From Spirochaetota bacterium (lineage in GTDB: Bacteria > Spirochaetota > UBA4802 > UBA5550), in assembly GCA_050298055.1 (NCBI GenBank), contig JBNKTL010000004.1, positions 34,223 through 98,222 on the forward strand: 64,000 nucleotides of DNA. Reading direction: 5' to 3'. Below are positions 8,962-52,978 of the stretch, piece by piece. Under the pieces are notes generated by a model that had not been told where the DNA came from, ran no database searches, and worked only from the letters and a program-made list of their open reading frames with translations. The position numbers were made by a program, and so were the translations under genes. Each line of letters begins with the position of its first letter. Within the stretch, counting starts at the first letter, position 1.

Positions 8962-9130
8962 GACGTGACAGATGCCGTTGCCGGTAAAATCTGAATGACA
9001 GACGGGTGTGAATTAAATTCCGGGAAAATTCCCTGAAATCAAAAAAAGTTTTAATGAACCAGGTTTCAGAATCGTATTAATAGTGAGGAATAATTGCATT
9101 CCTGATCAAAATACCGGGAGGTTGAACATA

Positions 9131-9598
9131 ATGAGAACCACCATCACTATTGACTCGGAACTTCTTGAAAAACTGGAAGAGGCTGCGGATACACTCCGTC
9201 TATCAAATAATGCACTGATCTCACTCCTTCTCACGCGTATCATCAGGAAAAACGAGTTTGAACCCAGGCCCTATGAAAGAGTCACCTACCAGAAATTTGG
9301 AAAGGAGTTTATTATCCTGGAAAAAGAGCATATTAATATAGATTCTGTTTTTTATGAGAAGTATCTGGATTTAAGAAGGAATTTTAAGTTTTCCGTTTCC
9401 TGGCTTATTGGATTTGCCATCAGGCATTATCTTGATGAACTTGTTTATGATTTGAGTAATCCCAGGAATCATAAAAAGATCCTGGATAATTATGCAAGAA
9501 ATTTCGTATATATTACACGAATGCTGGATACTGTTCCCCTTTTTATCTCGATTCTGGGATTTCCGGATCAAAAAACCCTGGAAAGACTCATGCTCTAA
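9131..9598 (+). CDS. Ribbon-helix-helix / DUF1564-like spirochaete protein
   Basis: MRTTITID..LLEKL RHH-like start, YQ, and DLRRNFKFSVSWLI motif; GGGAGG RBS before ATG 9131. Confidence 0.6.
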   Translation: MRTTITIDSELLEKLEEAADTLRLSNNALISLLLTRIIRKNEFEPRPYERVTYQKFGKEFIILEKEHINIDSVFYEKYLDLRRNFKFSVSWLIGFAIRHYLDELVYDLSNPRNHKKILDNYARNFVYITRMLDTVPLFISILGFPDQKTLERLML

Positions 9599-10139
9599 CC
9601 AAAACCACATCAAAAAAGTTAGAAAAATCCTTTCATAAAAAACCGGCTTTATCCCGGAATTACAATCACGCCCTGATAGACTCTTCAAAAAATTATTTAC
9701 AGACTTATATACATAAGTTATAGTGTCTTGTCTCTATCTGAGTTAAACCAGTTTTTGTTTTGAGATGTTGGGAGACCGGGAAAAAACACCGGTTTCGGTG
9801 AGAAAAGAGAAGACCCCCCCGATATTTATCAAGCCTGAATGTTCCGCGTGCAGTTGAAATTACCCGGTTCCACCAGGTAAATGAGAGGTATGAGTGAAAT
9901 TCTGGAGAATGTTGGATGATTGAGGTCCCAAGAGTCATTCTTATTAACGAAAAGCTTAAAAATTCCATGGAAGATGCCGTATAACCGGATTGCAGTTTGT
10001 GCTTCCCGAACAATGGGATGGTTATAAGCAATAGAAAGAGCATAAAAGGTCATCACGTGACTTAAGCAGGGAGAATGTGCGAAGTAAATTTTACCCTTGA
10101 ATAAGAGTAATCAGAATTATTAAAATGGAGGAATCTACA

Positions 10140-10254
10140 ATGTATTATGTTCTCAGATGCCCCCTTCTTGTTACCGAAGAAGACGAGCTGCTTCTTTCGG
10201 AAATCCAGAATCATGAAGAGGTGGGTGAAACCGGAAGACTATGTGCACCTGTAA
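10140..10254 (+). pseudogene. Deletion remnant of an Imm11/DUF1629-like gene (first ~30 codons fused to a 3' end)
   Basis: MYYVLRCPLLVTEEDELLLSEIQNHEEVG matches the start of the 14958 gene; it is followed out of frame by KPEDYVHL*. Confidence 0.75.
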
Positions 10255-10383
10255 GCCCGCGCTGCGGGGTCCCGGTTGTATCAATTTTGCAAAAGTGTTC
10301 TCGATCATATGATAGATCAAAAAGTTATCCTGAGAGGGATGAGATTTATTGAGCTTCTCAGCGTATAAAAAAGGAAGAATTTT

Positions 10384-12144
10384 ATGAAAAAATATTTGGA
10401 ATACAGAGACGATAAAAGCGCCAAATTCTGGGAAATTACCGTAACAGGCAATTCTCACACAGTCCGCTACGGAAAGATAGGGAGCGGCGGGCAGAGCAAG
10501 AGCAAGGAGTTTCCTTCGGCAAAGGAGGCCGGAAAAGATGCGGAGGGACTCATCCTCTCAAAAGTGAAGAAAGGCTACAGGGAAGCGAACCAGGATGACT
10601 CTTCTGCAAAAGACGTCGACATCACAGAGTGGTGGGAGGGTCTCGATAGCACATGGCAGGAACTGCTGAAAGGAGCGGCAAAGATCAAGGCCGGTGTGGG
10701 TGAGAAAGAGCTCCGCAAAATAAAAAGGCTGGAAGAGCTGGAGATTTTTGCTAAATATACCATATCAGATTTGCAGCCGCTTTCGTTCCTGGAAAACCTT
10801 GAGGAGTTATCAATCTATTCGCAGAAAAATATTCGCAAACTTGCTCCTCTGCAAAAATTGAAAAATTTGCGAAATCTTGAAATCTATAACAGCAGTGTTT
10901 CAGATCTTTCCAGCATCAGCGATCTAACCGGATTGCAAAATCTGTCGCTTTCCCGGACAAAAGTTAAGGACCTCTCTCCGCTTAGCAATTTAAAACAGCT
11001 GCACTCTTTGTGTATCGATAATACAAATGTTTCCGACCTGTCGCCTTTAAAGGATTTGGAAAACCTGGAGAAAATCGAATTCCGGGAAACGTCCGTTGTT
11101 TCCATAAGGCCCATCCTCTCCCTGTCAGGATTGAAGACAATTATATGCTGGGACACAAAAATTTCGTTCCGGGAATATCTTCACTCCTTTGATGAGGGAA
11201 CTTTTTCTGAGATTCGTATCAGGTGTGATTATCTCAAGTCCGGTCTCTTTTTAAAAGAGATACAGAGGCCGGAGTTTTCTCTGGAAGAGCATAAAGAGAG
11301 CGTGGGGCTTGCGGCCTCTTTTGCCATAACAAACGAGTCTTCAAAAGAGTCTGTCTCTCTCCTTGCTCATTGCTTAAAAAATCTTCCCGGTTCTATTCCC
11401 GAAAATCGCATAGCCGAAATCAAAAACAAATTCCAGCAGGATAAAGGAAAGGGGTATTTAGCAAAAATAGATAAGGAACTGGATGCTCTTTTGTCAGGAT
11501 ACAGTCCCGTTAAAGGATCCGGAGCCCCAGTGGGGTTGTCCCGCGAAGTGTGGGATGAGATCTCTCTGGCGGATGATCAGAGCCGGGCAGTGGCGAAATA
11601 CATCAAGACCATTTTCCCCGATTCGGAAGAAAAAGTCATTCAATTACTAATGAAGCAATTTGACTCTGCGGGGCTGACAGAGGATGGCTTCCTGTATTTA
11701 AATTTTAGACTCGTAGAATATGATCATATAATCACGTTTACATTTTTTCCCCCGGTAGAGAGAATTTTACCCTTTGTCAGTTTGCAGGCCCTGTACAATA
11801 TACACGGCGAGATTCAAGGAGAATGCCTGGGCGGAGGGCTTCTCTGTTGCCCTGCCCGTACTATGGTATCGGACTGGTTTGAAGAGGGCGACGATTTCCT
11901 GATTGGTATGGATGACTTAGATGACTTTTACCCCCTGGTATTCGATGTGGGGCAGAATGCCATGGTGGCCCATCCCGGTAAAAAGAATAAAGGTGGTGAA
12001 CCGGCTCTCTTTTTTCTGGACCATGAAGAGGGAGAACCCTTCGCTCTATCCAATGCCGAACAATTATCGGCGCGCCAGATCTTTCTCATGCTGATTGTCC
12101 AGTATCTGGGAGCGAAAACATATTTTGAAGAGGTATCTTTTTAA
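10384..12144 (+). CDS. WGR domain + internalin-like leucine-rich repeats + acidic C-terminal SUKH-like domain
   Basis: YLEYRDDKSAKFWEI...RYGKIGSGGQ (WGR); SDLSPLxxLxxL repeats; HPGKKN..EPALFFLDHE. Confidence 0.85.
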   Translation: MKKYLEYRDDKSAKFWEITVTGNSHTVRYGKIGSGGQSKSKEFPSAKEAGKDAEGLILSKVKKGYREANQDDSSAKDVDITEWWEGLDSTWQELLKGAAKIKAGVGEKELRKIKRLEELEIFAKYTISDLQPLSFLENLEELSIYSQKNIRKLAPLQKLKNLRNLEIYNSSVSDLSSISDLTGLQNLSLSRTKVKDLSPLSNLKQLHSLCIDNTNVSDLSPLKDLENLEKIEFRETSVVSIRPILSLSGLKTIICWDTKISFREYLHSFDEGTFSEIRIRCDYLKSGLFLKEIQRPEFSLEEHKESVGLAASFAITNESSKESVSLLAHCLKNLPGSIPENRIAEIKNKFQQDKGKGYLAKIDKELDALLSGYSPVKGSGAPVGLSREVWDEISLADDQSRAVAKYIKTIFPDSEEKVIQLLMKQFDSAGLTEDGFLYLNFRLVEYDHIITFTFFPPVERILPFVSLQALYNIHGEIQGECLGGGLLCCPARTMVSDWFEEGDDFLIGMDDLDDFYPLVFDVGQNAMVAHPGKKNKGGEPALFFLDHEEGEPFALSNAEQLSARQIFLMLIVQYLGAKTYFEEVSF

Positions 12145-12231
12145 TTCTGATTTTTCACGAAAGTGTTCCCGGTTATATGAAAGATCAAAAAGTTATCCAC
12201 CAATTTTAAAGAAGAATTTTCAGGAGGTCAA

Positions 12232-12801
12232 ATGTACTATATTTTAAAGCAGCAGGATGAGGATGAGAATTCCGGTTATATGGAAATTGAAGAGGGTAAA
12301 CACTGTAAAGGTTTCAGGAACTGGGGAGTAGGGCGCACAACATCCACTGTTCCGTCGGATGATGTGATCATTGATGTTGTCCCTTATGACGGTTATCAGG
12401 GCGATCCGCCCGATTTTTCCGATTCCAGTATACCGCTGATGTCCGAACGTTTGCGTAAGGCGCTGGAAGGCGCCGGGGTGGACAATATTCTCTATCATCC
12501 GGTGACATTGAAAAATACCGAGACCGGGCAGACCTATCCCTACTACGCCTTCAATCTGATCGGTCGCGTATCCATGGTAGATTTGAAAGCATCGGATATT
12601 CAGAGTTACGATGGGGATTATACCGGTGACAGCAGTATCAAGAACCTGGTACTGGATGAATCAAAAGATCCCGGGCTTTCCCTGTTTCGTTTGGAAGAGA
12701 ATTTCTCGATTGTTATAAAAGAAGAAATAAAAAAACACTTGGAGTCCTGCGGGATTGATACATTGAAATATATTGCACCGGAAGATTATTACGCCCTGTA
12801 G
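12232..12801 (+). CDS. Imm11/DUF1629-like immunity protein
   Basis: PLMSERLRKALEGAGVDNI.YHPV, YYAFNLIG, L.LDESK, LFRLEE; acidic; CAGGAGG RBS. Confidence 0.8.
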   Translation: MYYILKQQDEDENSGYMEIEEGKHCKGFRNWGVGRTTSTVPSDDVIIDVVPYDGYQGDPPDFSDSSIPLMSERLRKALEGAGVDNILYHPVTLKNTETGQTYPYYAFNLIGRVSMVDLKASDIQSYDGDYTGDSSIKNLVLDESKDPGLSLFRLEENFSIVIKEEIKKHLESCGIDTLKYIAPEDYYAL

Positions 12802-12849
12802 TATTGAGGAGAGTTTGTATCTATTTTATAAAGGTTAATGGAGATAAAA

Positions 12850-14847
12850 ATGCCAAAAAAAACACGACTTGAATACACAGATGAAAAATCCAACAAATTC
12901 TGGGAGATCGAAGTCTCAGGTAACAGCCATACTGTCCGGTTTGGAAAAGCCGGTACAGAGGGACAGAGTAAGACAAAGGAATTCCCGTCGGAAGAAGCGG
13001 CGCAAAAAGATGCGGATAAGCAGATCGGGGGAAAGCTGAAAAAGGGGTATCTTGAGAAAAAGACCGGAACAGGTTCAAAAAGTCCTCAGAAGAGCGGGAA
13101 AACCGGCCAGGGGACCGGCTATTCCGGGATACTCAACGCGAAGGATAAGAAAGAGCTTCAGAGAGCATTGTGTGAGCATTTCTCCTCTCTGGCCGATACT
13201 CCCGGCGCGGAAAAAATTCTTGAGATGGTTATGGGCACTGCCTCTTCCGCGAAACTCGAAGACGGGAAACTGGTGGTACATTTAAAAGATAAGGCCCTCA
13301 CCGCGTCACCGCCGGATAAAAAAGCAAAGTATGGCAGCTACGGCTACCTTTTTAAAAACCATGCCCGCCTTGAATGTGCGTCCCTGGACCTGGGTTTCAT
13401 TACCGCGGACCGCTACTTTGATGATCTGGAGGAGGATGAACTGGAAGATGAGCTTGGAGATTATTATGATGAGTTAAAGGATATATCCCTGAAAAAACTG
13501 AACATTCTTGTGCGGGAGAACTCGGATATATGGATGCCCCATCCCAAAAAGAAGAATCCCCTGGGGAAACCGCAGTTGATCGGTATCCTTCATGATGAGG
13601 GGAGTGATGCTTCGCCCTATAACCCCGGCGGATTTTTTCTCTTAAAAATAGCCGGTTATTTAAAGCTGAAGGTTTCATTGCCTGATGCCCCGCAGGAGAA
13701 GAAAGCTGCCCCTCACTCTTCGCAAACCCTTTCCTTCTCTTCCGCTGAATTTTTAAAAGAGACCGTTGAGACAGCAGACAATTTAAAAAACGACTTACCG
13801 GAAAGTGGAATTCAAATTTTTCTTACGCGGGAAGATAACAATACCGCGTATATGTATAATGATGAAGAGGAAAAACTCTTTATTTATGAAATCAAAAATA
13901 ACAGGTTAATGAAGGCAAGTGAAATAGCCTTGAAAATGGAAATGGGAAGTTCTTCATCTATCCTTGATGGTGATTACATATATATATCCGGTTTTTCAGG
14001 GGGAATTTCAGGTGGAAACGCGTCTATTCTTGATATAAGTGATTATAAAAATCCGAAGCATATCCCCGTGAAAGAACAATCTGTAAATACCCTCTGCGTG
14101 AGAAAGGGAATTATCTATTCCAACCGGTACAAATATAATGAAGAATACAATGAAAAAAATAACTCCTACTTAACTCCCGGTGACATTGAGATGCCGGAAA
14201 TCCCTAAAGGGAAAAACCTGATCAGGCATTGGAATGAAGAAGAATCACCGGGAAATCTTCGGTGCCGGGAAAACCCGGTATACCTGGCGGACGGTATCTA
14301 TGTCCGGGAACTGACCGGCAAGGAAGCAGTGAGAAAAACCTTAAAATTCGGCCAGAATTGTTTACTCATAACAATAGATGATACCCTGGTGGGGTTTACG
14401 GATGATGATACCGTTGCCTTTGATATTTCTGATCCACTGGAACCAACAATTGTAAACAGCAAAAAGAAAGAAAACTACCCGGTCCAGCCCATTGTTTTTC
14501 CCGGCAAAAAATGTATTGTTTTGCTTGAAAGAAATTTCGCGATTTCGGTGACAACAGTTGACCGAAAAATTACCGGCATACAAAAACTTCTGAAAAATTT
14601 CAAAACAGTATTATGGGACAGGCTGGGCGATATTATCTGGCTGCTGCTGGAAGGGAAGAAGAGTTTTTCCCTTGCTGCAGTCCAGATTGACGCGGTAGAA
14701 TCCAGAGTGATTGTCGAGCCAATGAAACTGAAGCCGGAAAAAGATATTCCTTTATATAAATGGCGCTGGATGAAGGTTGACGGCAACAGGGCGCATTTCT
14801 TTCTGCATGGGGAAACAGATGAGTATATAAGTTTTCATTTAAAATAA
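12850..14847 (+). CDS. WGR domain + SUKH-like segment + LVIVD-like beta-propeller protein
   Basis: RLEYTDEKSNKFWEI...RFGKAGTEGQ; WMPHPKKKNPLGKPQL..HDE; ILDISDYKNP and AFDISDPLEP repeats. Confidence 0.8.
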   Translation: MPKKTRLEYTDEKSNKFWEIEVSGNSHTVRFGKAGTEGQSKTKEFPSEEAAQKDADKQIGGKLKKGYLEKKTGTGSKSPQKSGKTGQGTGYSGILNAKDKKELQRALCEHFSSLADTPGAEKILEMVMGTASSAKLEDGKLVVHLKDKALTASPPDKKAKYGSYGYLFKNHARLECASLDLGFITADRYFDDLEEDELEDELGDYYDELKDISLKKLNILVRENSDIWMPHPKKKNPLGKPQLIGILHDEGSDASPYNPGGFFLLKIAGYLKLKVSLPDAPQEKKAAPHSSQTLSFSSAEFLKETVETADNLKNDLPESGIQIFLTREDNNTAYMYNDEEEKLFIYEIKNNRLMKASEIALKMEMGSSSSILDGDYIYISGFSGGISGGNASILDISDYKNPKHIPVKEQSVNTLCVRKGIIYSNRYKYNEEYNEKNNSYLTPGDIEMPEIPKGKNLIRHWNEEESPGNLRCRENPVYLADGIYVRELTGKEAVRKTLKFGQNCLLITIDDTLVGFTDDDTVAFDISDPLEPTIVNSKKKENYPVQPIVFPGKKCIVLLERNFAISVTTVDRKITGIQKLLKNFKTVLWDRLGDIIWLLLEGKKSFSLAAVQIDAVESRVIVEPMKLKPEKDIPLYKWRWMKVDGNRAHFFLHGETDEYISFHLK

Positions 14848-14957
14848 GGAGTTTTCTGAAACCTGAAGACTCTGTGCAGCTGTAATGCCGGGTTGAAGTT
14901 TATTCCACCGGAAGATTATTACGCGCTGTAAGTGCTGAAAAAAAAGGAGGTACATCA

Positions 14958-15475
14958 ATGTACTATGTATTAAGCTGTCCGATTATTGTTACCGAGGAAG
15001 AGAGGTTGCTGCTTTCCGAAATCCAGACAGATGAAGAGGTTGGCGACATCTGGAGCTGGGATTCCGGGGAAAAATTTGAGCCCGATGAAGAGAGCAGCAT
15101 TCCCTCCCCCATCGAAATGGAAGTGAAGTTCTTTCGTGGATATAAAGGGCCTCCCGAAGAGATGAACGATCTCGATGTATGTGTCATGTCGAAGCGCCTT
15201 TCCCATGCGTTGACCGGTGCCGGAGTGGATAACATTGACTACTACCCGGTTGTTTTACGCCATAAGAAAAGCGGTCAAAGCTATGATTATGCGGCTTCAA
15301 CATCATCGGAAAGATAGCTGCGGCGGATATCGAGAAATCGGCAACAGGAGGCCTTCTGGTATTCCGCCTTGCGGAAACAACCGGGACCATACTTGTGCAT
15401 GAAAGCGTACGCGGCTATATTGAAAAGCAGGGGATCAATACGCTGAAATTCACCGCTCTTGAAGACTATGAATAA
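14958..15475 (+). pseudogene. Frameshifted Imm11/DUF1629-like gene
   Basis: VMSKRLSHALTGAGVDNIDYYPV; after a frameshift near 15290 it continues GFNIIGKIAAADIEKS..LLVFRLAETTGTILVHESV...FTALEDYE*, with a ~20 aa internal gap versus paralogs. Confidence 0.8.
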
Positions 15476-15643
15476 CAGCCAGGCGCCCCATATTCTGATT
15501 TTTCACGAAAGCGTTCTCGATTACCTGGATGAGCACGCGCCGGATCTGGAAGGTATGGAATACCAGGAGCTTCTCAGCGTTTGAATTGGAGACATCCCGG
15601 CAAAGCCGTGGATTTACTTATTTGATTTTAAAAAAGAAAACAA

Positions 15644-16429
15644 ATGCAGAGTGAAGACTTACAAGACATTATAAATGATGTAAAAAAAGATTTTATTGTC
15701 AAGCTGGAGAAGTTTCTTGAAATGGAAGGGCCTCGAGATCTCTGGTACGGCTGTATAATAAATCCATACGGTGTAACAATGTGTAACGAATTAATGTTCG
15801 TTAATAGTGCAAAAAGTGCAATGTCAGCAGATCCGGAAAATTACAGTAATCCAGCCCGTCTTTATCAGTTGCGCTGGGAGTATGAAGGTTCAGGTTTATT
15901 GGTAGCAGATTTTTTTGAAGAACCTTTTGATAGTAATGAAAAGTTACAGTCATTTATTGAATCCCATAATAATTTATCATTTGAGGAACAGGTTTCTTCG
16001 CCTCTGACAGGTATTATGCACTCTCTTCTATCCTGTGTGGAGGAAATAAGAGAGGTAATGGCCCTGGATCTTTATCTTACCAGGGATTTTTATGTTGTCC
16101 TATCTATAAATGGGAAAGATATTGAAAATCCTCCACCCTGGCATGGAAAGAGTTATGATCAACCACAGCCAATGAAAAAAACTCGATATGGTAAAACATC
16201 CGAAAGTCCGGCAAAAGTATTGACCCTTGAAGAAAAAACGGAATTTCAAATTAAAATCGAAAAAGCAATGAAGTTGATACGTCCTCATGAAGAGGCAATG
16301 GCAAATCAAAGGATGATTTCCGAGAGGATGTTAGAAGAAATTAAAAATAGATGGAGTGATTATAAAGAACGGAGAGAATTGCTTCGAAATCTCAGGCAGA
16401 GGAGTGATTCTGATTATCGCAAAGAATGA
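15644..16429 (+). CDS. Hypothetical protein (acidic N-terminal domain, helical C-terminus), in the immunity-like array
   Basis: 261 aa open frame co-oriented with the array; no recognised motif. Confidence 0.65.
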   Translation: MQSEDLQDIINDVKKDFIVKLEKFLEMEGPRDLWYGCIINPYGVTMCNELMFVNSAKSAMSADPENYSNPARLYQLRWEYEGSGLLVADFFEEPFDSNEKLQSFIESHNNLSFEEQVSSPLTGIMHSLLSCVEEIREVMALDLYLTRDFYVVLSINGKDIENPPPWHGKSYDQPQPMKKTRYGKTSESPAKVLTLEEKTEFQIKIEKAMKLIRPHEEAMANQRMISERMLEEIKNRWSDYKERRELLRNLRQRSDSDYRKE

Positions 16430-16487
16430 AACAGGTCTAATGCGGATCCCCAAGGATCCCGCTTGAACATTAAACAGGAAGAAAATT

Positions 16488-17201
16488 ATGAAAATGATAA
16501 CAGGGAAACAACTGAATTCACTTGAAAAATTCAGCCCGGGAAGCGGGGAATACATGGATTTCAGTGATGAACTTATGGTCGATATCGGAGAGCTCACAGC
16601 CCTTGATACCATGGCGGGTAACGACCAGGGGCTTGGCTGCCTCTGGGAATCCCGGACTCCTTTTGGATTCTTCCATTCCATGAAACATGAAATTATCAGG
16701 TATTTACACTGGCTTTTGATATTCCGTTCCTTTCAAAGGGGCGCGTCTCTTTCCTTTGAGGAAGAGATATACTGTGACTATCCGCGGCAGGACCCCTGGT
16801 ATCTTATTGTGGGAGAGCATGACCAGATGCATTGCCTTGTATCCGAGGTCAGAGCCTCCGGGCAGGTGGAACCCACACGGTACCGTTCCAACGAGCATTC
16901 AAAGAAAACGGCCTACTCAAACATTGAGAGATTTGTTGTCAATCTGCAGGTTGAACGTCTGTGCGGTGAATATCTCAACTGGTTGTCCGGGACCGGCGAG
17001 TTTGACTCCTATCTTGACCGTCTTTCTGCCATAGATTTTACGAAGATCGAACAGATGATCAAGGGGGAGCTCCTTAAACACTATGGCTCCGCCATAGAGT
17101 CGAAAACGGAAATCGGCGGCGTGCAATTTGAATGGACCGGGGGGCATTACAACAAAGAAGCATACGGGCAGGGTTTTTGTTATTCTGCCCCCCTGCGGTA
17201 A
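16488..17201 (+). CDS. Hypothetical protein, in the immunity-like array
   Basis: 237 aa ORF with AGGA RBS, co-oriented; no recognised motif. Confidence 0.65.
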   Translation: MKMITGKQLNSLEKFSPGSGEYMDFSDELMVDIGELTALDTMAGNDQGLGCLWESRTPFGFFHSMKHEIIRYLHWLLIFRSFQRGASLSFEEEIYCDYPRQDPWYLIVGEHDQMHCLVSEVRASGQVEPTRYRSNEHSKKTAYSNIERFVVNLQVERLCGEYLNWLSGTGEFDSYLDRLSAIDFTKIEQMIKGELLKHYGSAIESKTEIGGVQFEWTGGHYNKEAYGQGFCYSAPLR

Positions 17202-17314
17202 ATTTTTTTAAGCTGTACCAGGTAGTTATTTTAAAAGGGTTTTTCCGGGGAGAATCTCGGAATGAGTAAGACTGAAAATGAAAAAGAGAATGATAGGAGC
17301 TGAAAGGGACGTTC

Positions 17315-17875
17315 ATGAGTAAATACTATATACTGGAAAGCAGGGAACATACCCTGGTGGGTATGATCAGCTACAGGAACTCCGGGTGGGGGACCCACTT
17401 TACCCGGGGGGAACTCCTTGAGGAAAATTTCGGCGAAGGGGAGATCCTTGTGGAGTTTGAAAAAAACCATGATCAGTTGCCCGATTATTTTGAGCTGTCA
17501 GCCGTACCTGTTGTCAGTGAAAATTTTGTTCGTCACCTGGAAGCTCTGGCCCCGGAGAACTTCCAGCTTTTTCCGGTCACAGTGAAAATGCCCGGCAGGG
17601 AATTATCCGGCTACTCCATTATCAATGTAGTGGGACGTGTTCCCGCTGTGGACGGGGATGCCAGTGATTGTAAAATGTATGATGGGGATATTATGCGGTT
17701 GAATAAACTGGTCCTGAAAAAAGACCTGGACCGGGGCCTGGATCTTTTCAGGGCCGAAGAATATCCCCTGGCCATCTTTATCTCAGGAGCTGTGAAAGAC
17801 GCATTAGAGGCAGGTTCCCTCACAGGGATGCGGATCACTCCGGCTGATGGCTGGAGCGATAAGCATAGATTCTGA
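17315..17875 (+). CDS. Imm11/DUF1629-like immunity protein
   Basis: YYIL, PDY, PVVSE, FQLFPV, YSIINVVG, LVL, LFRAEEYP.AIFIS..VK. Confidence 0.82.
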   Translation: MSKYYILESREHTLVGMISYRNSGWGTHFTRGELLEENFGEGEILVEFEKNHDQLPDYFELSAVPVVSENFVRHLEALAPENFQLFPVTVKMPGRELSGYSIINVVGRVPAVDGDASDCKMYDGDIMRLNKLVLKKDLDRGLDLFRAEEYPLAIFISGAVKDALEAGSLTGMRITPADGWSDKHRF

Positions 17876-18012
17876 AAATTTTACTATATTTTGAGGTATT
17901 AAAAAGCAGGGGATCGATACCCTGACCTTCATCAAACCTGAAGAGTATGTGCAGCTGTAAGCCTGGGCTGCGGGTGTGTCCCGGTTGATTCCGCCGGTCT
18001 TTAAAAAAGCCA

Positions 18013-18597
18013 TTACTTTAGTAAAACTCTTTTCAGAACTATTTTCATGTTGTTTATATACTGATCCTGTGTCCATCCGCAATCAATTATAAACTGCTCC
18101 CAGTTTTGCACAGAGATCTGTATGAAAAATATATCCACAGCTTCTTCTACTTGCAGCTTTTTCGTGAATGTTCCTTCTTTTTTTAAATACAGGACAACAG
18201 ACCTGACAGCATCTTTTAAACAGTCCAAAATACTCCTCCAGGCAACAGCTGCTGCCTCATCATTGTCCTTAGTGAGCAAGAAAGCTTTTGATATCCCGTA
18301 GATCTCAGGTATATAGTTGCCCCAGACATCCACAGTAGCATCAATCATCTCTGCACCGTTTGCGCTATTATAGAGCCGTTCAAGCCTCTCATTGAGCCCT
18401 TTTACCTGATCAATGTATGCTATAGTTGCAATCATTAAATCGGTTCGAGTTGGAAAATGGAGGTAGACAGCCTGCCGGGATACACCCGCGCGTTTTGCTA
18501 TATCACTCATGCGCACACCGAGTCCCTGGTTTTCTTCAAGGAGATGCCATGTAGCTTCTAAAATGTCTTTTTTTGTCTCTTTTTTATCAAAATTCAT
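18013..18597 (-). CDS. TetR/AcrR-family regulator
   Basis: MSDIAKRAGVSRQAVYLHFPTRTDL HTH. Confidence 0.92.
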   Translation of the reverse strand: MNFDKKETKKDILEATWHLLEENQGLGVRMSDIAKRAGVSRQAVYLHFPTRTDLMIATIAYIDQVKGLNERLERLYNSANGAEMIDATVDVWGNYIPEIYGISKAFLLTKDNDEAAAVAWRSILDCLKDAVRSVVLYLKKEGTFTKKLQVEEAVDIFFIQISVQNWEQFIIDCGWTQDQYINNMKIVLKRVLLK

Positions 18598-19835: not shown

Positions 19836-20114
19836 TCAACCATTGCTTGCTGGCAACGGGATTTCACTGGAACGTCAAACCTGCATATGATTCCGACAGG
19901 AATCATATGCGATGTTTCATATTAAAGAAAATATCGGCACCATCATGGTCCATGAGAGTGTGAAGCATATTGAAGAGCAGAGGATCAAAAAAGTGATGGA
20001 AAAATAAAAAATATATTGACAACAGAGGGATGTAGGTTAGGAATCCTAACTAGCATGGCTTTTGCCATCCAACACCGGTACCCGGTACCGGATCTCAGAA
20101 ACCGAGGAGAAGAT

Positions 20115-20948: not shown

Positions 20949-21506
20949 ATGTACTATTTTCTTAGCTGCTTTGGCCCCCGGGACCGTGACCGTGCCAGCC
21001 TCACCAATATTCCGCAATTTGACGGCGTATACTGGAATATGGGCCAACGTATTACCCGGGAGTTACCCAGCCCGATTCATATTGACCTTTATACCGATGA
21101 AGGTGATGCAATGGTGCCGATGTTTCATGCCGGTATTCTGCTGATGGAAAAGAAAATGGTAAAAACCCTCATGGATGCCGGGGTGGATAACCTGCAGCTA
21201 TTTACTGCAATTTTGCATGACAGGGAAAACAGCAGAGAATACGATAATTATTTCGCGGTCAATATCCTGGGTGCAATTGCCGCCGTTGATTTTGAGCAAT
21301 CCAATTACACTGCCCACGGTGAACCGGTGACCGATGTGGATTTTGAAGGATTAACCATTGACGAATCCAAAACGGATAATGCCTCTATGTTTCGCCTGGC
21401 TGAATCTGTATCCGGCATAGTGGTACATGAAAAGATAAAAACTGCCCTGGAATCGGCCAATATTCCCTACTTAGATTTTATTCTTCCGGAAGATTGGATT
21501 GGCTGA
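20949..21506 (+). CDS. Imm11/DUF1629-like immunity protein
   Basis: MYYFL, L.DAGVDNLQ, YFAVNILG, IDESK, MFRLAES..IVVHEKIK, PEDW; paralog of 12232 and 14958. Confidence 0.82.
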   Translation: MYYFLSCFGPRDRDRASLTNIPQFDGVYWNMGQRITRELPSPIHIDLYTDEGDAMVPMFHAGILLMEKKMVKTLMDAGVDNLQLFTAILHDRENSREYDNYFAVNILGAIAAVDFEQSNYTAHGEPVTDVDFEGLTIDESKTDNASMFRLAESVSGIVVHEKIKTALESANIPYLDFILPEDWIG

Positions 21507-24099: not shown

Positions 24100-24243
24100 A
24101 TGGGTGAAATGAATGAAGTTAAATCAGAGAAAGGATTAAGTATTACTAAAATACTTCTCGCAGTGCTGGGTGGTCTTATCACCCTGGGATGTGCCGGTTT
24201 TGTTATTTATATTCTGGTTTTCTATTCAGATAAGATGGGATAA
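24100..24243 (+). CDS. Small single-TM protein (47 aa)
   Basis: Below the ORF-track cutoff. AGGAG RBS; MGEMNEVKSEKGLSITKILLAVLGGLITLGCAGFVIYILVFYSDKMG*. Confidence 0.6.
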   Translation: MGEMNEVKSEKGLSITKILLAVLGGLITLGCAGFVIYILVFYSDKMG

Positions 24244-24312
24244 ACTCTTTCCCGGAATGCAATATCTCTGCGGCAGGTTTTGTCTTTATTGGAATTAATG
24301 CAAATCCTGTCC

Positions 24313-25425
24313 TTACTCAAATTTCTTCCCCTCCCTTAACAGGGGAAAGTAGTGGGCGTTGATCCTTGCCAGTATGAGGGAACCGACAAATGTTGTGGCT
24401 GTAAGAAGGGGGATTGTATAGTGGATCTTCCCTGTGAGGCCCACGAGAAAAAATACCATCGAATAGGCCTCCTTCTTTACAAGGTATTTTGTCCTGTGGA
24501 TAAATTTTACCTTGCAATCGTCCGGGGGAAGCTTTGAGATAAATTCAACATCATAAGCCTTAAGTGATTGTGACCGGCTGAATTCCCTGAGATACATGAG
24601 AACAATGCCTATCATGATAATAAGACCGGCGATTGTAAGAACAATGGTTGAGAGTGTGTAAATCATCCCGAAATCGAGGTAGTTCACATAGTAGATGGCA
24701 ATAATCAGGTAGATCACCGCGATATGGTCGCATATGGTGTCGAGCCAGCCTCCCAGCCGGGATGACCTGAATGTGAACTTCGCCACCTCGCCGTCAACCC
24801 CGTCGAAAATGGACGCAAGCTGAAAAAGTGTTCCCCCCAGGGCAATGCTCCAGTACCTGTTCCGGAAAACCAGGTATCCCGCGAGCATCCCGATAACGAA
24901 GTTCAGGAGGGTGAGGGTATTGGGATGGACCCTTGTTCCGGCCACAACTTCGCTTATGGGCACGGATATCCTTTTATTAATATTTTTTGAAATATAGCCC
25001 TCGGTTGTGTCCAGGAGTCTCTGTTTGACCATGGATGATGCTTTTTTAATCTCCTGCGGGCCGTCTATGGGGAACTGTTCACCGTTGAGTACCGGTTCAT
25101 AGGACTTTTTCTTTTTTTTAAAGTACTGCTCAAAAGAATCCAGGTAGTGTGACTGCATGAAGAGGTTGGAGGGCATCCTGAGGTAATTGACCTCGATATC
25201 CTCCTCCTTATCGAATATGATGACAAGGGTCTTTATCCTGCCGATATGTTTTTTAATCCTCTCCCGGTAAAAACTCAGTTCCTCTTCCGAAAGGTCCAGG
25301 TGAATTTTATTTACCCCCCCCTTTGCCAGTACATTGATAAGCCTCTCGAAGGGATAGAGGCCGCATATTTTCCTGTTATGGGGATATTTCCCTCTGCTGT
25401 AAATATAGGCTGTATCTGGAATCAT
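24313..25425 (-). CDS. CDP-alcohol phosphatidyltransferase with a degenerate N-terminal NTP-transferase-like domain
   Basis: HPNTLT; DGVDGEVAK...SRLGGWLDTICD signature. Confidence 0.9.
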   Translation of the reverse strand: MIPDTAYIYSRGKYPHNRKICGLYPFERLINVLAKGGVNKIHLDLSEEELSFYRERIKKHIGRIKTLVIIFDKEEDIEVNYLRMPSNLFMQSHYLDSFEQYFKKKKKSYEPVLNGEQFPIDGPQEIKKASSMVKQRLLDTTEGYISKNINKRISVPISEVVAGTRVHPNTLTLLNFVIGMLAGYLVFRNRYWSIALGGTLFQLASIFDGVDGEVAKFTFRSSRLGGWLDTICDHIAVIYLIIAIYYVNYLDFGMIYTLSTIVLTIAGLIIMIGIVLMYLREFSRSQSLKAYDVEFISKLPPDDCKVKFIHRTKYLVKKEAYSMVFFLVGLTGKIHYTIPLLTATTFVGSLILARINAHYFPLLREGKKFE

Positions 25426-25468
25426 GGATGTTAAATTATATTCAGATGTTTAAATAACAATTCTTTTT

Positions 25469-27151
25469 TTAAAGTCCCATATTTCCCGGGTTCATGATAT
25501 TTTTCGGGTCCAGCTGCTTTTTAATTGCTCTCAGGATATCCGTCTCCCTTTTTCCGAGATAACTTTCCATCCAGGGTGAAAGAAGTCTTCCCACACCGTG
25601 ATGGTGTGAAAGTGATCCCCCCGCTTTGAGGATTGAATCGATAACACCCGTAAGAAACTCCCTGTACCTGTCTAGGCTGTGAAGTTTCATGATAAAAATA
25701 AAGTAGAGATTTGTCCCCTGGGGATAGAAGTGGGAGCAGTGGCTCATGCAGATGATGTTATTTCTCCTTTTTACATGCTTCCTCACAGACTCATGGACGT
25801 GATGGAGGTTGTCCCATTTTACCGATGTCTCAAGAGTGTCTGTGATAATCCCGTAATCCAGGAGGTCTTCCCTCATGTAGGGGTCGGTATAGCGTCCCTG
25901 TTCCCACATCTTTACGGGCTGTCCCGTAAGGGAGACACCTTTGAAACCGCGGCAGATGGCTTTCACCTGCTTTTTAACGGCGGCGGTGCGGCTTTTGTGG
26001 CCGTCAGAGCTGCCGATAAGGAGGGACCGTTCTCCCGGTTTGAGGCTTCTCATTTTCATGAGGGTATCCAGAGGTGTCCCTTCGATGCCGTAGAGTTTCA
26101 GCGCGGCATCGGTCTCCTCGGGGTCGGATATCCTGAGCACCGAGGGCTTCCCGAACTCTCCCTGCATGATCTCCCTGCAGGCGTTCACGGCTCCCTCCCA
26201 TTCCGGGAAGATAAAACTGAAGTATCTCCTGTTCCGGGGCATGTGTCTGAATATCCTCAGGATCGCTTCAACCATCACGCCGAAGCATCCTTCGCTCCCC
26301 TTCATGATCTCATTGATGTCGGGCCCGGTTGCGGCGGAAGGATAGTCCCGTGTCCGGACACTCCCCGCGGGGGTAAGATATTCCTGGGCCAGGACGAGAT
26401 CGGAGGCGTCCCCGTAGTAGGTGGACTGCTGCCCGGAACCCAGGGCCGATATCCAGCCACCCACGGTTGAATACTGGAAGGACTGGGGAAAATGACCGCA
26501 GGTATAGTTGTGCTCTGTTCCGTGGGTCTCTGCGGCGTTGTTCAGGAGTGCTTCAAGTTCCGGGCCCCTGATTCCCGGTTCAACGGTCACTGTCTGGTTG
26601 AGTTCGTTTATGCCCAGCAGGCGGTTCATGTGGGTGCTCATAACCAGGGTAATCCCCCCCCGGGCCGGACTGAACCCGAAGTTCACCGAGGAACCGCCGC
26701 CGTATGTATAGAGAGGTAGTTTTTTCCTGTTACAGTAGCTGATGATATCCTCAACATTCTTCCTGTTTTTCGGGTGGACGACAATGTCGCAGAGCCCCCC
26801 GTGTTCTTCTCCCCGGAGAAGTATCTCCTCCTCTGCGGTCTTCCCGGTTGAGTATTTTATCCTCTGGTAGTCTTCGAAAGATATGTTATTTTCACCGACA
26901 ATTTTCTCAAGGGCCCTGATATCTCTTTTTGAAAGACGCTGCTTCTGACTGCTTCTGGCCGGGGCATCGCCTTCATTTTTCCTCTTATGGAAAAATTCAT
27001 CTGTGAGTTCTAGCTTTTCCTTTAAGAGTGAGTAAAGCCTTTTGTTGGGATGTTTGTAGATGCGGGGATCACCCCACTTGAAAATGGAGCGCCATGAGTT
27101 TTCAGCAGGAGGTGTCTCCCTCCATGGGGGGATAAAATCTTTTTCTTTCAT
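25469..27151 (-). CDS. FAD-linked oxidase, alkyldihydroxyacetonephosphate synthase (ADPS/AgpS)-like
   Basis: YGGGSSV, GHFPQSFQYSTVGGWI, GSEGCFGV, SHCSHFY..G.NLYF, GGSLSHHHGVG, LDPKNIMNPG; start set at MKEKD (27151). Confidence 0.85.
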   Translation of the reverse strand: MKEKDFIPPWRETPPAENSWRSIFKWGDPRIYKHPNKRLYSLLKEKLELTDEFFHKRKNEGDAPARSSQKQRLSKRDIRALEKIVGENNISFEDYQRIKYSTGKTAEEEILLRGEEHGGLCDIVVHPKNRKNVEDIISYCNRKKLPLYTYGGGSSVNFGFSPARGGITLVMSTHMNRLLGINELNQTVTVEPGIRGPELEALLNNAAETHGTEHNYTCGHFPQSFQYSTVGGWISALGSGQQSTYYGDASDLVLAQEYLTPAGSVRTRDYPSAATGPDINEIMKGSEGCFGVMVEAILRIFRHMPRNRRYFSFIFPEWEGAVNACREIMQGEFGKPSVLRISDPEETDAALKLYGIEGTPLDTLMKMRSLKPGERSLLIGSSDGHKSRTAAVKKQVKAICRGFKGVSLTGQPVKMWEQGRYTDPYMREDLLDYGIITDTLETSVKWDNLHHVHESVRKHVKRRNNIICMSHCSHFYPQGTNLYFIFIMKLHSLDRYREFLTGVIDSILKAGGSLSHHHGVGRLLSPWMESYLGKRETDILRAIKKQLDPKNIMNPGNMGL

Positions 27152-27164
27152 TTCTTTCTTCTTC

Positions 27165-27202
27165 AACTCGGAACTCGAAACTTGGAACTTGGAACTCAAA
27201 AC
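27165..27202. repeat. Five imperfect heptamer repeats (AACTYRR)
   Basis: AACTCGG AACTCGA AACTTGG AACTTGG AACTCAA between glpD and the ADPS start. Confidence 0.7.
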
Positions 27203-27215
27203 ATTTCTTACTCAA

Positions 27216-28847
27216 TCAGGGTAACCTCAATGATTCAATAACTTCTTTTACTTCTCTTCTTCTCCTGAAGAATCCCCATTTCAGCTCTTTACCCGCGGCC
27301 TTTGCGGCTTTTTTCAAAACACTTTTCCCCGGATTTCCAAGGGTCCCCAGACCTGTCCTTCTCAACACCACATCCTTCAGGGTATAAGCCATCTCATTTT
27401 TTACCGCGTATACAACCTGCGCGAGGATTTCTCCGTCGCTGTTCAATATTTCCGCGTACTTCCTGTTTTTCCGGGCAATCTCCAGGACCTGCCCGTACTC
27501 GGTGCCGTAGTTCCTTGCGAGGTACCTGACGCTGGTTTCTTTAAAGTCACTGTTTCCAGCAACAGCGGATTCAATGAAATTTTTCATATCTTCTATTTCC
27601 GAACCGGAGAGGTGCTCTTTCTCCGTTCTGGATTTAATATGATCTCTTCCCAGTTTCTTTTCTATGAGGTCTACTACTTTTTCTCCCAGGTTCCTGCTGG
27701 TTGTATATTTTCCCCCTTCAACGGTGATCAATCCTTCAATACCGTTTGTACTGCTGTCAAATATTTCATACTTCCTGGATGACTGGTAGGTGTCCTTTTC
27801 AGGATCTTCCACAAGGGGCCTCAGGCCCCCGTAACAGGAGAGAACATCTTCATATTGTAAGCTCCCGTCACCAAATGACTGGTTGACTTCATGGATCAGT
27901 TCCCGGATGCTTTCCTCTGACACCCTGTAATGATCGGGATCACCGGTGTAGTCCTTGTCAGTGGTCCCGATAAGTGTGTGGTCCCTCCAGGGGATAAGAA
28001 AAAAGTGTCTGCCCGAGGGTGTCCGGGAGGCTATGATGTATTTGTTGACCAGCTTTCCGGTTATGATGTGGATCCCTTCGGACCTCTTGATCTTATGTGA
28101 TCGGTTATTTTCTTTCATGGCCATGTTCAGTGTGATGTCCGCCCAGGGCCCGGTACAGTTGATAATGATTCCGCCCCTGAGTTCTTTGACTCTCCTGTTT
28201 AACCTATCCAGGACTTCTATTCCTGAAATTCTCCCCTCACGGTCTTTGATAAAGCCCTTTACCTCCGAGTAGTTGGAAATATCAGCACCCTGTTTTACCG
28301 CGGATTTCAGAAAGGCGAGGGTCAATCTCTCCGGAAAGATGTTCATGCTGTCATAGTAGATTACGGCACCGGTAAGATCTTCCTTTTTGATATTGGGTTC
28401 CCTTGCAAGGGCCTCTTCCGGTGAAAGTGACTGGTGGCCGGGGATCTTTTTGCTCATATCGCTTACAGCTCCCCTGTCGTAGGCAAGAAGATCATAGAGC
28501 ATCATACCCGATTTGAACATAAGCTTGCTGCTTTTTGAACCGCCATATTCGGTAATGAGGATCGGTACCGGGTAGACAAAGTTGGGAGCAATGTTGCCCA
28601 GGATCCTTCTCTCCCTGAGTGATTCTCTTACAAGGCCTATCTCCATGTTTGCCAGGTAACGGAGACCGCCATGTATGAGTTTGGATGTGGCCGCCGATGT
28701 TGCGCCCCCGAAGTCGTTTTTTTCAACGAGAGCGGCTGAAAATCCCCTGCTGCATGCCTCGTAGGCCACTGCGGCCCCTGATATCCCTCCCCCGATAATA
28801 ACAATATCGTATTCTTTTAATTCATTTTCTTCAATAAATCTTTTCAT
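27216..28847 (-). CDS. glpD: FAD-dependent glycerol-3-phosphate dehydrogenase/oxidase
   Basis: IIGGGISG, TSAATSKLIHGGLRYL, IGTTD, GGLRPL, GGKYTT, RRT. Confidence 0.93.
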   Translation of the reverse strand: MKRFIEENELKEYDIVIIGGGISGAAVAYEACSRGFSAALVEKNDFGGATSAATSKLIHGGLRYLANMEIGLVRESLRERRILGNIAPNFVYPVPILITEYGGSKSSKLMFKSGMMLYDLLAYDRGAVSDMSKKIPGHQSLSPEEALAREPNIKKEDLTGAVIYYDSMNIFPERLTLAFLKSAVKQGADISNYSEVKGFIKDREGRISGIEVLDRLNRRVKELRGGIIINCTGPWADITLNMAMKENNRSHKIKRSEGIHIITGKLVNKYIIASRTPSGRHFFLIPWRDHTLIGTTDKDYTGDPDHYRVSEESIRELIHEVNQSFGDGSLQYEDVLSCYGGLRPLVEDPEKDTYQSSRKYEIFDSSTNGIEGLITVEGGKYTTSRNLGEKVVDLIEKKLGRDHIKSRTEKEHLSGSEIEDMKNFIESAVAGNSDFKETSVRYLARNYGTEYGQVLEIARKNRKYAEILNSDGEILAQVVYAVKNEMAYTLKDVVLRRTGLGTLGNPGKSVLKKAAKAAGKELKWGFFRRRREVKEVIESLRLP

Positions 28848-28856
28848 GATGTTGAT

Positions 28857-28971
28857 GCTCTGACCCCTTTATTCTCCGGAAAGAAGGATAACAATACGAA
28901 AAATGCTCTGACCCCCCTGAATCTGCTCTGAGCAAGCTTGATAACTATCCGCGAAGGGCTCTGACCCCTGA
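28857..28971. repeat. Three copies of GCTCTGACCCC (plus one partial GCTCTGA) upstream of glpD
   Basis: Direct repeats at ~28857, ~28904 and ~28958. Confidence 0.65.
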
Positions 28972-29195
28972 ATTATAAACATGGGAGCTATCTTTGTCAA
29001 TATTTATTTCATGATGTTATAAAATGACAGGTAAAGTGTCTTCAATCCGTGACCATGAGCAGGATATTTTAGAATTACATAAAATGTTAAATTATTTTCT
29101 TGACAAATTATGGGCTGTAAGAGAATGTTTTTACAGAGTTTATTTGAAACTCTTTTATTGAGCGAGTCACATAACTTTCATATACCATCCATTGG

Positions 29196-29232
29196 ACCGC
29201 CGGGCATGCTTTGAGTATGTCCGGCGGTTTTT
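29196..29232 (+). terminator. Intrinsic terminator about 190 nt upstream of ilvE
   Basis: ACCGCCGGGCATGCT-TTG-AGTATGTCCGGCGGT stem (15 bp, 2 G-U pairs) followed by a T-run. Confidence 0.75.
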
Positions 29233-29418
29233 CATATTTTCTCTAAAAAATTTATTTTCTTCATTAAGCTCAAGGAACATTATAATGAGCCAATTGCCGG
29301 TTTTACCCTTAAATCAATAATTCTTGACAATTTTTTTACATAAAGGATTTATATCCAATGATAGGGAAAACCGGTAAACTGTTGAGGGTACCGGTAAACC
29401 CGGAACGGAGAATGAATC

Positions 29419-30441
29419 ATGGGTAAAAAAGCGGACCTTGATTGGAAGAACCTTCCATTTGGTATAGTCAAAACTGATTATAATATCAGGTACCACTACA
29501 GGAACGGGAAATGGTCAGAAGGTGAGATGGTCAAAGATACGGACCTCACTATTCATATTGCCTCTCCCTGCATCCACTACGGACAGCAGGCATTTGAAGG
29601 GCTTAAGGCGTTTGAAACAGCCGAAGGGAACATTGTGGTCTTCAGGGCGGATGAAAACGGAATGAGGCTGCAGAAGAGCTGCAGGAGAATATTCATCCCG
29701 GAAATCCCCATGGACCTGTTTCTTGATGGAATAAAGAAAGTTGTCAGCGCCAACTCAAGGTTTGTGCCTCCTTATGGTACCGGGGCAAGTCTCTACATCA
29801 GGCCGGTGGTCATAGGGACCGGCGGACAGGTTGGTCTCGGACCCGCATCGGAATATATCTTTATTATCATGGTTACCCCTGTAGGCCCCTACTATAAAGG
29901 GGGATTCAAACCGGTTAAAGCGCTGGTTGTTGAAGAGTATGACAGGGCCGCGCCCCTGGGTGTGGGTGACTGCAAAGTGGGAGGTAACTATGCGGCGGGT
30001 CTTATGGCGCGGCAGTTCGGCCTTGACAAGGGATATCCTATCGCGCTCTTCCTTGATCCAAAGGAGAAAAAGTTTATTGATGAGTTCAGTACTTCCAACT
30101 TCATGGGAATAAAGGGCAAAAAATATATCCTTCCCGATTCAAAAACAATACTCCCCAGCATTACGAACAAAAGCCTTGCGGTTATTGCGGAGGATATCGG
30201 CATGACCGTCGAAAAAAGGCCTGTTGATATTGAAGAGGTTGAAAACTTTGACGAAATCGGTGCTGTGGGAACCGCGGCAGTGATAACACCTATCAGCGTG
30301 ATACACTATAAAGGGAAGGATTTCACATACGGAGACGGGGAGAATGCCGGGCCCATAATAACAGACCTCTATAAAAGACTGGTTGCAATCCAGACCGGCG
30401 ATGAACCTGACAGGCATGAATGGCTGATGAAAGTCGAATAA
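29419..30441 (+). CDS. ilvE: Branched-chain amino acid aminotransferase
   Basis: HYGQQAFEGLKA, SLYIRP, KVGGNYA, ILPSIT, GTAAVI. Confidence 0.96.
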   Translation: MGKKADLDWKNLPFGIVKTDYNIRYHYRNGKWSEGEMVKDTDLTIHIASPCIHYGQQAFEGLKAFETAEGNIVVFRADENGMRLQKSCRRIFIPEIPMDLFLDGIKKVVSANSRFVPPYGTGASLYIRPVVIGTGGQVGLGPASEYIFIIMVTPVGPYYKGGFKPVKALVVEEYDRAAPLGVGDCKVGGNYAAGLMARQFGLDKGYPIALFLDPKEKKFIDEFSTSNFMGIKGKKYILPDSKTILPSITNKSLAVIAEDIGMTVEKRPVDIEEVENFDEIGAVGTAAVITPISVIHYKGKDFTYGDGENAGPIITDLYKRLVAIQTGDEPDRHEWLMKVE

Positions 30442-30443
30442 CA

Positions 30444-30477
30444 GAGGTGCCTGATCTCTGGCACCTTTTTTATTTTA
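30444..30477. terminator. Terminator between convergent genes
   Basis: AGGTGCC...GGCACCT followed by TTTTTATTTT. Confidence 0.7.
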
Positions 30478-30672
30478 TTCCCCGCTCGTCACTTTTTCCG
30501 CCTGAAGCGCAAGATACTTAACAAGAACCTGCTCTGATATCGAACCCTGGTTGACCAAAATAATGCCGATCAGTCCTCCTTCATTTTTCTGTACTTCCAG
30601 GGCTTTATCAAGTTGCTCCTGTGTAATTTCTCCCTTTTCAAGGAGTATCTCTCCCAGCAACGGTCTCGCCAT
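30475..30672 (-). CDS. Stand-alone MshEN-like (GspE N-terminal) small protein
   Basis: LGEILLEKGEITQEQLDKALEVQ...IGIILVNQGSISEQVL..YLALQ; GGAGG RBS before ATG 30672. Confidence 0.8.
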   Translation of the reverse strand: MARPLLGEILLEKGEITQEQLDKALEVQKNEGGLIGIILVNQGSISEQVLVKYLALQAEKVTSGE

Positions 30673-30799
30673 TATGTCCTCCCCTAAGCAGTTGATATTT
30701 TTTTTGATCAGTTCTGGAACACCCAAATCATGTACCCTTATATATATCTGAAAAAACAGTATACTACAAACAGTTTTTTAATTTTTTTCAAAATTTAAA

Positions 30800-30884
30800 G
30801 TTACTGCTCAACCCCAGCGTAAGAATAAGCATGTTAATGATGTTTTAGTAAATACATTTATTTCTGCCATTACTGAATAGTTAT
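30800..30884. mobile_element. Possible third, highly degenerate copy of the MITE-like element
   Basis: GTTACTGCTCA ... TATTTCTGCCATTACTGAATAGTTA resembles the ends of 60558-60695; central palindrome absent. Confidence 0.4.
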
Positions 30885-30895
30885 AATTACCATCC

Positions 30896-32380: not shown

Positions 32381-32472
32381 ATAAAAATTAAAACATAAAA
32401 AATTGTGAGTGTCAATCAATAAACCGGAATGTGGTTATTTTTTTTGAAAATGAGATGTTGTTTTTCCGGAGT

Positions 32473-49053: not shown

Positions 49054-49333
49054 AGATCCATTGGGAGTCCTTTAATAATATTAGAATTATTCACATCATC
49101 GTAGTTAGATATAAAGAAAATTTTCTTCTGCTAGTTTTTTGATATTATTTCAAAAGAATTTATTATACAGAACAGATCCTAAATAATTGATAGATAGTAT
49201 TTCTCATGAAAATGGAAACTAGAATGGAATGCTTTTTTTATTTGATATTGTAATAAGAAGTGGTGGACAAAAATTCATAATTGATATAACCAGTCATATG
49301 TATAGTGTGCATTAATCCTATGCAGTTTTAAAA

Positions 49334-52273: not shown

Positions 52274-52283
52274 AAAAAGTAAT

Positions 52284-52907: not shown

Positions 52908-52978
52908 GAATGAATAGGCATCTATAATTAAACAAGTATATTTGAATTATTGTATTGTTGATATCATATGGTAAATTA

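Follow-up and report, generated by a model that had tools for sequence, protein, structure and literature searches.

Orphan Imm11 gene ends in the spacers of a polyimmunity-like array of a Spirochaetota bacterium

Described immunity arrays and the Imm11 locus

We examined a 64,000-nucleotide (nt) stretch, hereafter the window, from a Spirochaetota bacterium (GTDB UBA4802; UBA5550; assembly GCA_050298055.1, contig JBNKTL010000004.1, positions 34,223 to 98,222 of the forward strand), in which the spacers of a tandem array of immunity-type genes carry orphaned 3' ends ("tails") of genes of the Imm11 family (PF07791). Orphan immunity genes also stand in arrays in acquired interbacterial defence clusters, reportedly in a recombinase-associated form, and in integrons; the contig that bears our array, in contrast, lacks a tyrosine recombinase, and its repeats are coding tails rather than recombination sites.

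By the features used to define polyimmunity loci (Zhang et al. 2012, PMC3482391), where Imm11 is named among the families that form them, the array resembles a heterogeneous polyimmunity locus of predicted Imm11, WGR-LRR, and SUKH-like products. As the polyimmunity passages of that paper describe them, such loci share with ours co-oriented tandem immunity genes, short gaps, and the lack of a recognised toxin; the polyimmunity section contains no gene-tail remnants, unlike our array, several of its loci adjoin XerC/D-type recombinases, of which the array contig has none, and the extended loci listed in those passages come only from proteobacteria, bacteroidetes, firmicutes, and actinobacteria. 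The esaG and tipC arrays of type VII secretion, going by the corresponding passages of PMC9484751, resemble ours in the integrase-free expansion and loss of paralogues, in mosaic alleles, and in homology blocks made of a gene end plus the downstream spacer. Those blocks, however, measure 55 to 100 nt and recombine in register to give whole genes, whereas in our array the gene ends are not extra-conserved, matches do not exceed 20 nt, and orphan tails stand at out-of-register joins. Illegitimate joins that leave a shifted 3' gene end without an integrase are shared with the orphan-immunity arrays of the type VI system of Vibrio cholerae, for which the relevant part of PMC5361080 offers a displacement mechanism as putative; in V. 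cholerae what is left over is the end of a toxin, and effector and immunity gene move as a pair, whereas our remnants derive from immunity genes and no toxin is recognised. We found no description of stacks of immunity-gene tails in the consulted portions of the literature on polyimmunity, esaG/tipC, and V. cholerae displacement, although Additional File 1 of PMC3482391 may prove to include such arrays.

An earlier reading of the DNA, made from its letters and open reading frames (ORFs) (the sequence-only reading), had proposed that conserved gene termini serve as recombination anchors for cassette gain and loss in an integrase-free accordion. Gene turnover has left a real record here, unusually dense, in a locus of a known kind; the proposed mechanism is possible, though not the best supported.

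The tails, their parents, and the joins

Imm11 tails lie in five of the eight array gaps, bearing out the claim that most gaps hold one, and each peptide quoted in that claim translates where it was placed, with the single correction that the first codon is at 10228 rather than 10229. The tails in the gaps comprise 8 to 38 codons and lie on the + strand; over all 14 cases, with lengths judged by eye, 3' pieces measure 8 to 48 codons. In subfamily A, a 5' stub of 29 codons with a ribosome-binding site (10140..10227) has 76% nucleotide identity to the start of the gene at 14958 in self-BLASTN of the window (10122-10228 versus 14941-15046, E 8e-14) and 50% amino acid identity to residues 1 to 29 of the protein P0004. 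It runs out of frame into a tail ending in KPEDYVHL and a stop, followed by its native, hairpin-bearing spacer (10228..10278); P0004 has the same last 8 residues, and the match to 17934-17987 (85%, E 5e-10) includes downstream DNA, so that the shared flanks claimed for the copies at 10254 and 17960 hold. The tail LKPEDSVQL (14856..14885) is 93% identical to 17934-17960 over 14859-14885, and the copy at 17897..17987, IKKQGIDTLTFIKPEEYVQL with its stop and native spacer, has 76% amino acid identity to P0004 residues 176 to 196 and scores 24.3 bits against a C-terminal hidden Markov model (HMM). Both 10140 and a site near 17882 had been read as a gene start fused to a gene end; the former join stands, while the start-like piece at the latter (YYILR) is weak (82% over 17 nt).

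Subfamily B is represented by a tail ending in ELLSV with a 2-nt deletion near its start (10280..10368; 86% to 12150-12198 over 10284-10330, E 2e-8; 48% amino acid identity to residues 156 to 182 of P0058), by an 18-codon piece that begins at the stop codon of a WGR gene and lacks its own last ~11 codons (12144..12198; 12144-12175 is 91% identical to 15492-15523), and by a 34-codon tail 4 nt past the upstream stop (15480..15584), identical to the end of P0058. The subfamily-C tail LKFIPPEDYYAL (14893..14931) repeats the end of the 12232 gene in diverged form, three of five differences lying at third codon positions; it had been called nearly identical to 12763-12801, and the similarity is real but only 89% (12763-12800 versus 14893-14930, E 3e-7). 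The named tails are thus real, but two had been missed: a frameshifted tail of ~38 codons at 9919..10034 (13.1 and 13.8 bits) and, outside the interval first described, an Imm11 3' piece at 19903..20007 (28.2 bits, with a DNA match to 15374-15438). The HMM was trained on Imm11 genes outside the array contig and scored no more than 8.3 bits over 585 kb of background; it misses four tails of the window that rank among the shortest or most divergent (10228, 10280, 12144, and 14856).

Taken together, the self-BLASTN links between copies span 76 to 93% identity and E values of 8e-14 to 2e-3. Mutual similarity of the fragments, on which their interpretation depended, is well above chance: positions 9600 to 18100 hold nine same-strand self-matches of at least 40 bits, one of them between two WGR domains rather than two tails, and no codon shuffle among 100 reached 40 bits (maximum, 34.6), while two of 100 random genome windows had at least eight self-matches of that score.

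Misassembly of paralogues is barely credible as a source of these joins. Four sequencing runs were examined as contigs, namely X1, which may be the source sample, X2, a further sample from that study, and X3 and X4 (small shares). Contigs of X1 cross the joins at 10228, 10280, 12144, 14893, 15480, and 17897 with 0 to 1 differences, and those of X2 cross the joins at 10228, 10280, 12144, and 17897; the out-of-frame fusion ORF (P0053) and a frameshifted ORF of 119 residues each occur on four contigs in the protein collection. The copies are only 70 to 93% alike, and the parents of the tails are missing from this assembly. What can be said for misassembly is that all four runs are contigs, that X1 may be the source sample itself, and that the listed contigs break at 12757-12768 and 14846-14850, so that no listed piece bridges by 31 letters the junction of the second WGR gene with the 14856 tail.

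The tails are true Imm11 gene ends with full-length parents, as comparison of the encoded proteins indicates. A search with the frame at 15447-15581 returned two proteins of 182 residues among seven candidates, of which P0001 is one parent, and the intact cluster member P0058, also of 182 residues, matches the 15480 tail at 34 of 34 residues. Against PF07791, P0058 scores 27.3 bits, P0004 scores 40, and P0001, at 19.7, falls below the cut-off of 22.1. A phmmer search with the 14958 protein led to P0004, which starts like the 10140 stub and the 14958 gene, ends in GIDTLTFIKPEDYVHL, and has the C terminus KPEDYVHL of the 10228 tail. No gene ending in YVQL or ELLSV is present in this genome, and the full-length genes that had been expected behind the tails exist elsewhere (P0058 for the ELLSV-type subfamily B, P0004 for subfamily A). 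Because P0004 carries both start and end, family A is the end of the subfamily that contains the 10140 stub, and 10140/10228 is most simply read as one gene that has lost its middle; this reading rests on subfamily-level evidence, since none of 30 candidates was an exact parent of the 10140 stub and a search for an intact parent of the 14958 gene returned only that gene among its three candidates.

Decay is also visible in intermediate states. The subfamily-A gene at 14958..15475 (+), which has a frameshift near 15290 and, aligned with P0004 and its relatives, an in-frame internal loss of ~23 to 24 codons, is by its sequence a half-way state, and internal deletions are present in three Imm11 genes (10140/10228, 14958, and C45:13004-13349). 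Differences between tail copies fall at codon positions 1, 2, and 3 in 13, 18, and 30 cases (61 in total, from nine non-independent pairs), a third-position excess indicating that most divergence arose in working whole genes before truncation. The identity of P0058 and P0001 to the 15480 tail over all 34 residues implies that this gene loss was recent.

Elsewhere in the genome, four further tails occur at three places: two on contig C15, 83% alike and on either side of an Imm11 gene, and one each on C49 and C3. The C49 tail, 75% identical to the end of the upstream paralogue, heads a duplicated two-gene block; at 7.8 bits it is under the HMM background and was confirmed by DNA comparison. Beside 55 full genes at 44 loci in other organisms, neither HMM nor DNA comparison found a tail, apart from one 18-nt match at chance level, and this negative is weak in that only four of the 44 loci have more than one full gene and the HMM missed four of the window's own tails.

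Deletion, displacement, and exchange as possible routes to the tails

We take the tails to be leftovers of gene turnover and tentatively favour, at a little under an even chance, deletion by out-of-register joins of short homology filtered by selection. Imm11 genes that are out of selection would lose their bodies, probably not in a single step, as short similar words are joined; selection would keep only those joins that spare the stop codon of the upstream gene and the ribosome-binding site of the next, and joins that leave a translated 5' stub would probably be purged. The survivor would be a tail and its native spacer directly behind the previous gene, and such tails may later act as weak direct repeats, as products of the process rather than its cause. 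Observation covers the tails and their parents, the intermediate states of decay, and the fact that the joins are out of register; that deletion is the route, that selection plays the part described, and that 5' stubs are purged is what we infer. Its support comes from the recent loss, the three internal deletions, the third-position divergence, the tails that overlap a stop (three overlap the upstream stop codon, one of them inside a 9-nt word also carried by the second K tail), termini that are no more conserved than gene bodies, perfect matches of at most 20 nt, and the lack of promoter enrichment.

Several observations weigh against this account. The left breaks cluster behind the upstream stop (10 of 13 within 25 nt of it), which single-step random deletion does not predict, so that the account needs added selection or erosion to fit the break positions. 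Under single-step uniform deletion such clustering has a probability of 2e-7 to 9e-6, rising to 7e-5 when 9919 and 19903, which have no near upstream stop, are counted as misses and to 8e-4 when two hits are removed, in a test whose boundaries were set after seeing the data, in which two tails follow another tail's stop, and which multi-step erosion would void. The start points of diverged copies nearly coincide (two A copies, three B copies within ~12 nt, and two K copies) and tail repeats stand on both sides of each WGR gene, patterns that also fit models of gene gain; no tail lies in any of the 11 spacers of the long array on C15; and we infer the locus and species of P0058, whose neighbours are unseen. 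No free 5' stub was found in the genome with an N-terminal HMM that is itself weak, and with 10 of 13 breaks so close to the upstream stop there is no room for one. Together, the clustering of breaks behind the upstream stop and the lack of free 5' stubs form the one oddity that is left over.

The main rival is displacement by incoming DNA, a doubtful but not negligible alternative in which homology-facilitated illegitimate recombination, with a long homologous anchor on one side and a microhomology join on the other, lets a donor replace the front of a resident Imm11 gene or bring in the tail of its own upstream gene, making each tail the mark of a gene gain. Tails right behind a stop and their short lengths would then be explained without special selection, and the same route has been proposed, in the part of PMC5361080 that treats them, for V. 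cholerae arrays in which the effector 3' end is shifted back. The genome encodes DNA uptake proteins (one ComEC and two DprA), but their presence is not proof of competence, and such genes are widespread, with 10 of 14 control genomes over the cut-off. The C49 tail that heads a duplicated block and the mosaic alleles would also suit gene gain. A similar subfamily-C gene is carried by another organism in the same study, whose contigs in X2 and X3 (at depth 32 in the latter) match parts of window 12604-12792 at 80% or more and may reflect a donor pool. Yet the mirror-image event would be expected to produce 5' stubs at a similar frequency, and the N-terminal HMM, which is weak, detected none that stood free; the three internal deletions require no donor; and the same passages of PMC5361080 put such events at orders of magnitude rarer than ordinary recombination.

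Exchange anchored in conserved gene ends, with cassettes integrating and excising between tail repeats as in esaG/tipC, is the mechanism of the sequence-only reading, and we consider it improbable. Rearrangement scars, a contig without a tyrosine recombinase (none of the genome's seven PF00589 matches lies on the array contig C4, nor on C15 or C49), and an array that probably recombines in the population are all borne out; it is the making of the scars by anchors that is not. Direct tail repeats do flank the first WGR gene (B...B), the second (C...C), and the C15 Imm11 gene (K...K, 83%). In run X2, 11 of 13 listed differences fall in 17782-17909 (128 of 2,359 bases), a tract of single-nucleotide polymorphisms from the 3' end of the 17315 gene into the next tail in which eight of 10 coding changes are silent; P0065 to P0068 show all four combinations of two marker sets, and P0087 departs from its allele only after residue 121. 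These mosaic, recombined alleles could, however, be mimicked by an assembly consensus of mixed strains, and further mosaic tracts lie mid-gene, not at ends. Ordinary recombination is probably active in the array, without demonstrated use or making of tails. Gene termini, moreover, are not conserved beyond the bodies (identity by sixth over 10 paralogue pairs, 0.66, 0.64, 0.68, 0.70, 0.67, and 0.70), the longest perfect match between tail copies is 20 nt, whereas PMC9484751, in its passages on the subject, gives 40 to 70 nt for efficient recombination, and crossover between homologous ends in register would yield whole genes and no orphan tails, so that it cannot make the out-of-register left joins seen here. 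No junction variant or excision joint of this organism appears in the contigs of the four runs, which drop rare variants. Two candidates were set aside: a 12666>12745 joint in X2 and X3 is probably another organism's, and P0064, a subfamily-C gene with a foreign tail after KYIAP that is unmatched in the genome, may be a contig-end chimera.

Retention of tails for a promoter or other cis-element of the next gene, with erosion halting at the edge of the element, would account for the 3' bias and the recurring start points, and one tail does hold a sigma-70-like site matching at 9 of 12 positions (10286-10313). We nevertheless regard it as very unlikely: promoter-like sites number 16 against 14.7 expected and terminator-like sites 10 against 9.8, only one of eight tails in the scanned region starts such a site, and stacked tails and tails ahead of dead genes are left unexplained. 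A bolder proposal is a polar, recombinase-free remodelling that always joins DNA behind a stop to a preferred site in the last 8 to 48 Imm11 codons, with tails reused as docking repeats to give a readable log, integron-like without an integrase; we hold this to be a speculative and improbable route.

Gene content, other arrays, and implications

All array genes lie on the + strand, and seven of the eight gaps measure 48 to 168 nt. The intact genes comprise two Imm11 genes, two WGR-domain genes (one with LRRs), and two ORFs without a family. The Imm11 genes are a subfamily-C member at 12232..12801 (PF07791, E 1.7e-11) and a subfamily-E member at 17315..17875 (PF07791), the latter with mosaic alleles in the population (the polymorphism tract and four allele combinations). 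The WGR-LRR gene at 10384..12144 (PF05406, PF12799) has a candidate SUKH-like domain at its C terminus, with SMI1/KNR4 and Syd as Atlas neighbours, and the second WGR-domain gene, at 12850..14847 (665 residues; PF05406), has the alleles P0075 and P0076. An ORF of 261 residues at 15644..16429 has no match in Pfam or NCBIfam, while language-model features suggest that the ORF of 237 residues at 16488..17201 is SUKH-like; this assignment and that of the 10384 C terminus are Atlas leads. A homologue of the 16488 ORF (L037, 39% identity) sits in an Imm11 array of another genome. Neutralisation of toxins by the array products is predicted from family membership. Among 15 proteins scanned, no toxin family was found, in a set where 15644-16429 and most of 12850-14847 match no family, and a search of the genome for AHH toxins gave no match, although its positive control was also silent.

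In 9600-18100, the 20 largest families of repeats consist of coding sequence, namely tails and starts from different subfamilies, and no single repeated non-coding recombination site between cassettes is among them, a result obtained without an attC model search. Comparison across assemblies shows an intact subfamily-B parent in other assemblies, and near-identical assemblies have most genes in common. DNA synteny with relatives was confined to short DNA matches in three of 40; subfamily-C relatives occur in seven of 121 genomes of the order (best, 53%), a metagenome scan with P0001 found no relatives among 25 stretches, and scans based on alignment A3 yielded 27 and 14 loci, none of them close (32 to 50%).

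The genome has 25 matches to PF07791, spread over several arrays. On C15, positions 24206-32195 (L084) hold 11 intact co-oriented Imm11 genes and one other ORF, with an internal 1.3-kb duplication at 80% identity, and adjoin a tRNA-like sequence at ~32355-32418. The window's Imm11 gene at 20949-21506, with ~370 bp upstream, is duplicated at C15:23064-24089 (82 to 86% nucleotide identity), and at some residues the P0078-P0080 alleles agree with the C15 paralogue, a pattern suggestive of conversion or of ancestral states that were retained. The array at C49:14182-20137 (L085) includes an Imm11 gene with a C-terminal WGR domain, at which its alleles differ (P0093 is ~50 residues shorter there and ends earlier). 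At C45:10004-13349 (L086), a large beta-propeller/TSP3-repeat gene lies directly 5' of the Imm11 gene with the internal deletion, and the two may once have been a toxin-immunity pair. The sequences at C15:32477-32544 and C45:15440-15474 belong to two palindromic intergenic families that are highly repeated, with dozens of copies across the genome. Near the array, window positions 9008-9673 form a 665-bp element with imperfect terminal inverted repeats of ~25 bp, whose only gene encodes a ribbon-helix-helix protein (9083-9598); at least five full-length copies at 85 to 94% identity are found in unrelated surroundings, and the genome has 21 homologues by tblastn. The element lacks an internal transposase and may be a non-autonomous mobile element with a regulator as cargo. 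A low-GC stretch at window 49001-53000 (0.26 to 0.30 versus about 0.44) is probably acquired DNA.

How orphan-immunity arrays that lack a recombinase gain and lose genes is an unsettled question. This genome offers about ten junctions in 10 kb and more elsewhere, and strains with intact parents exist, so that deletion, displacement, and tail-anchored exchange should be distinguishable from sister strains. The 3' polarity is the part most worth following. If plain decay is the answer, the array would be a clean case of biased pseudogene erosion; if the polar route is, it would represent a new way of building defence arrays.

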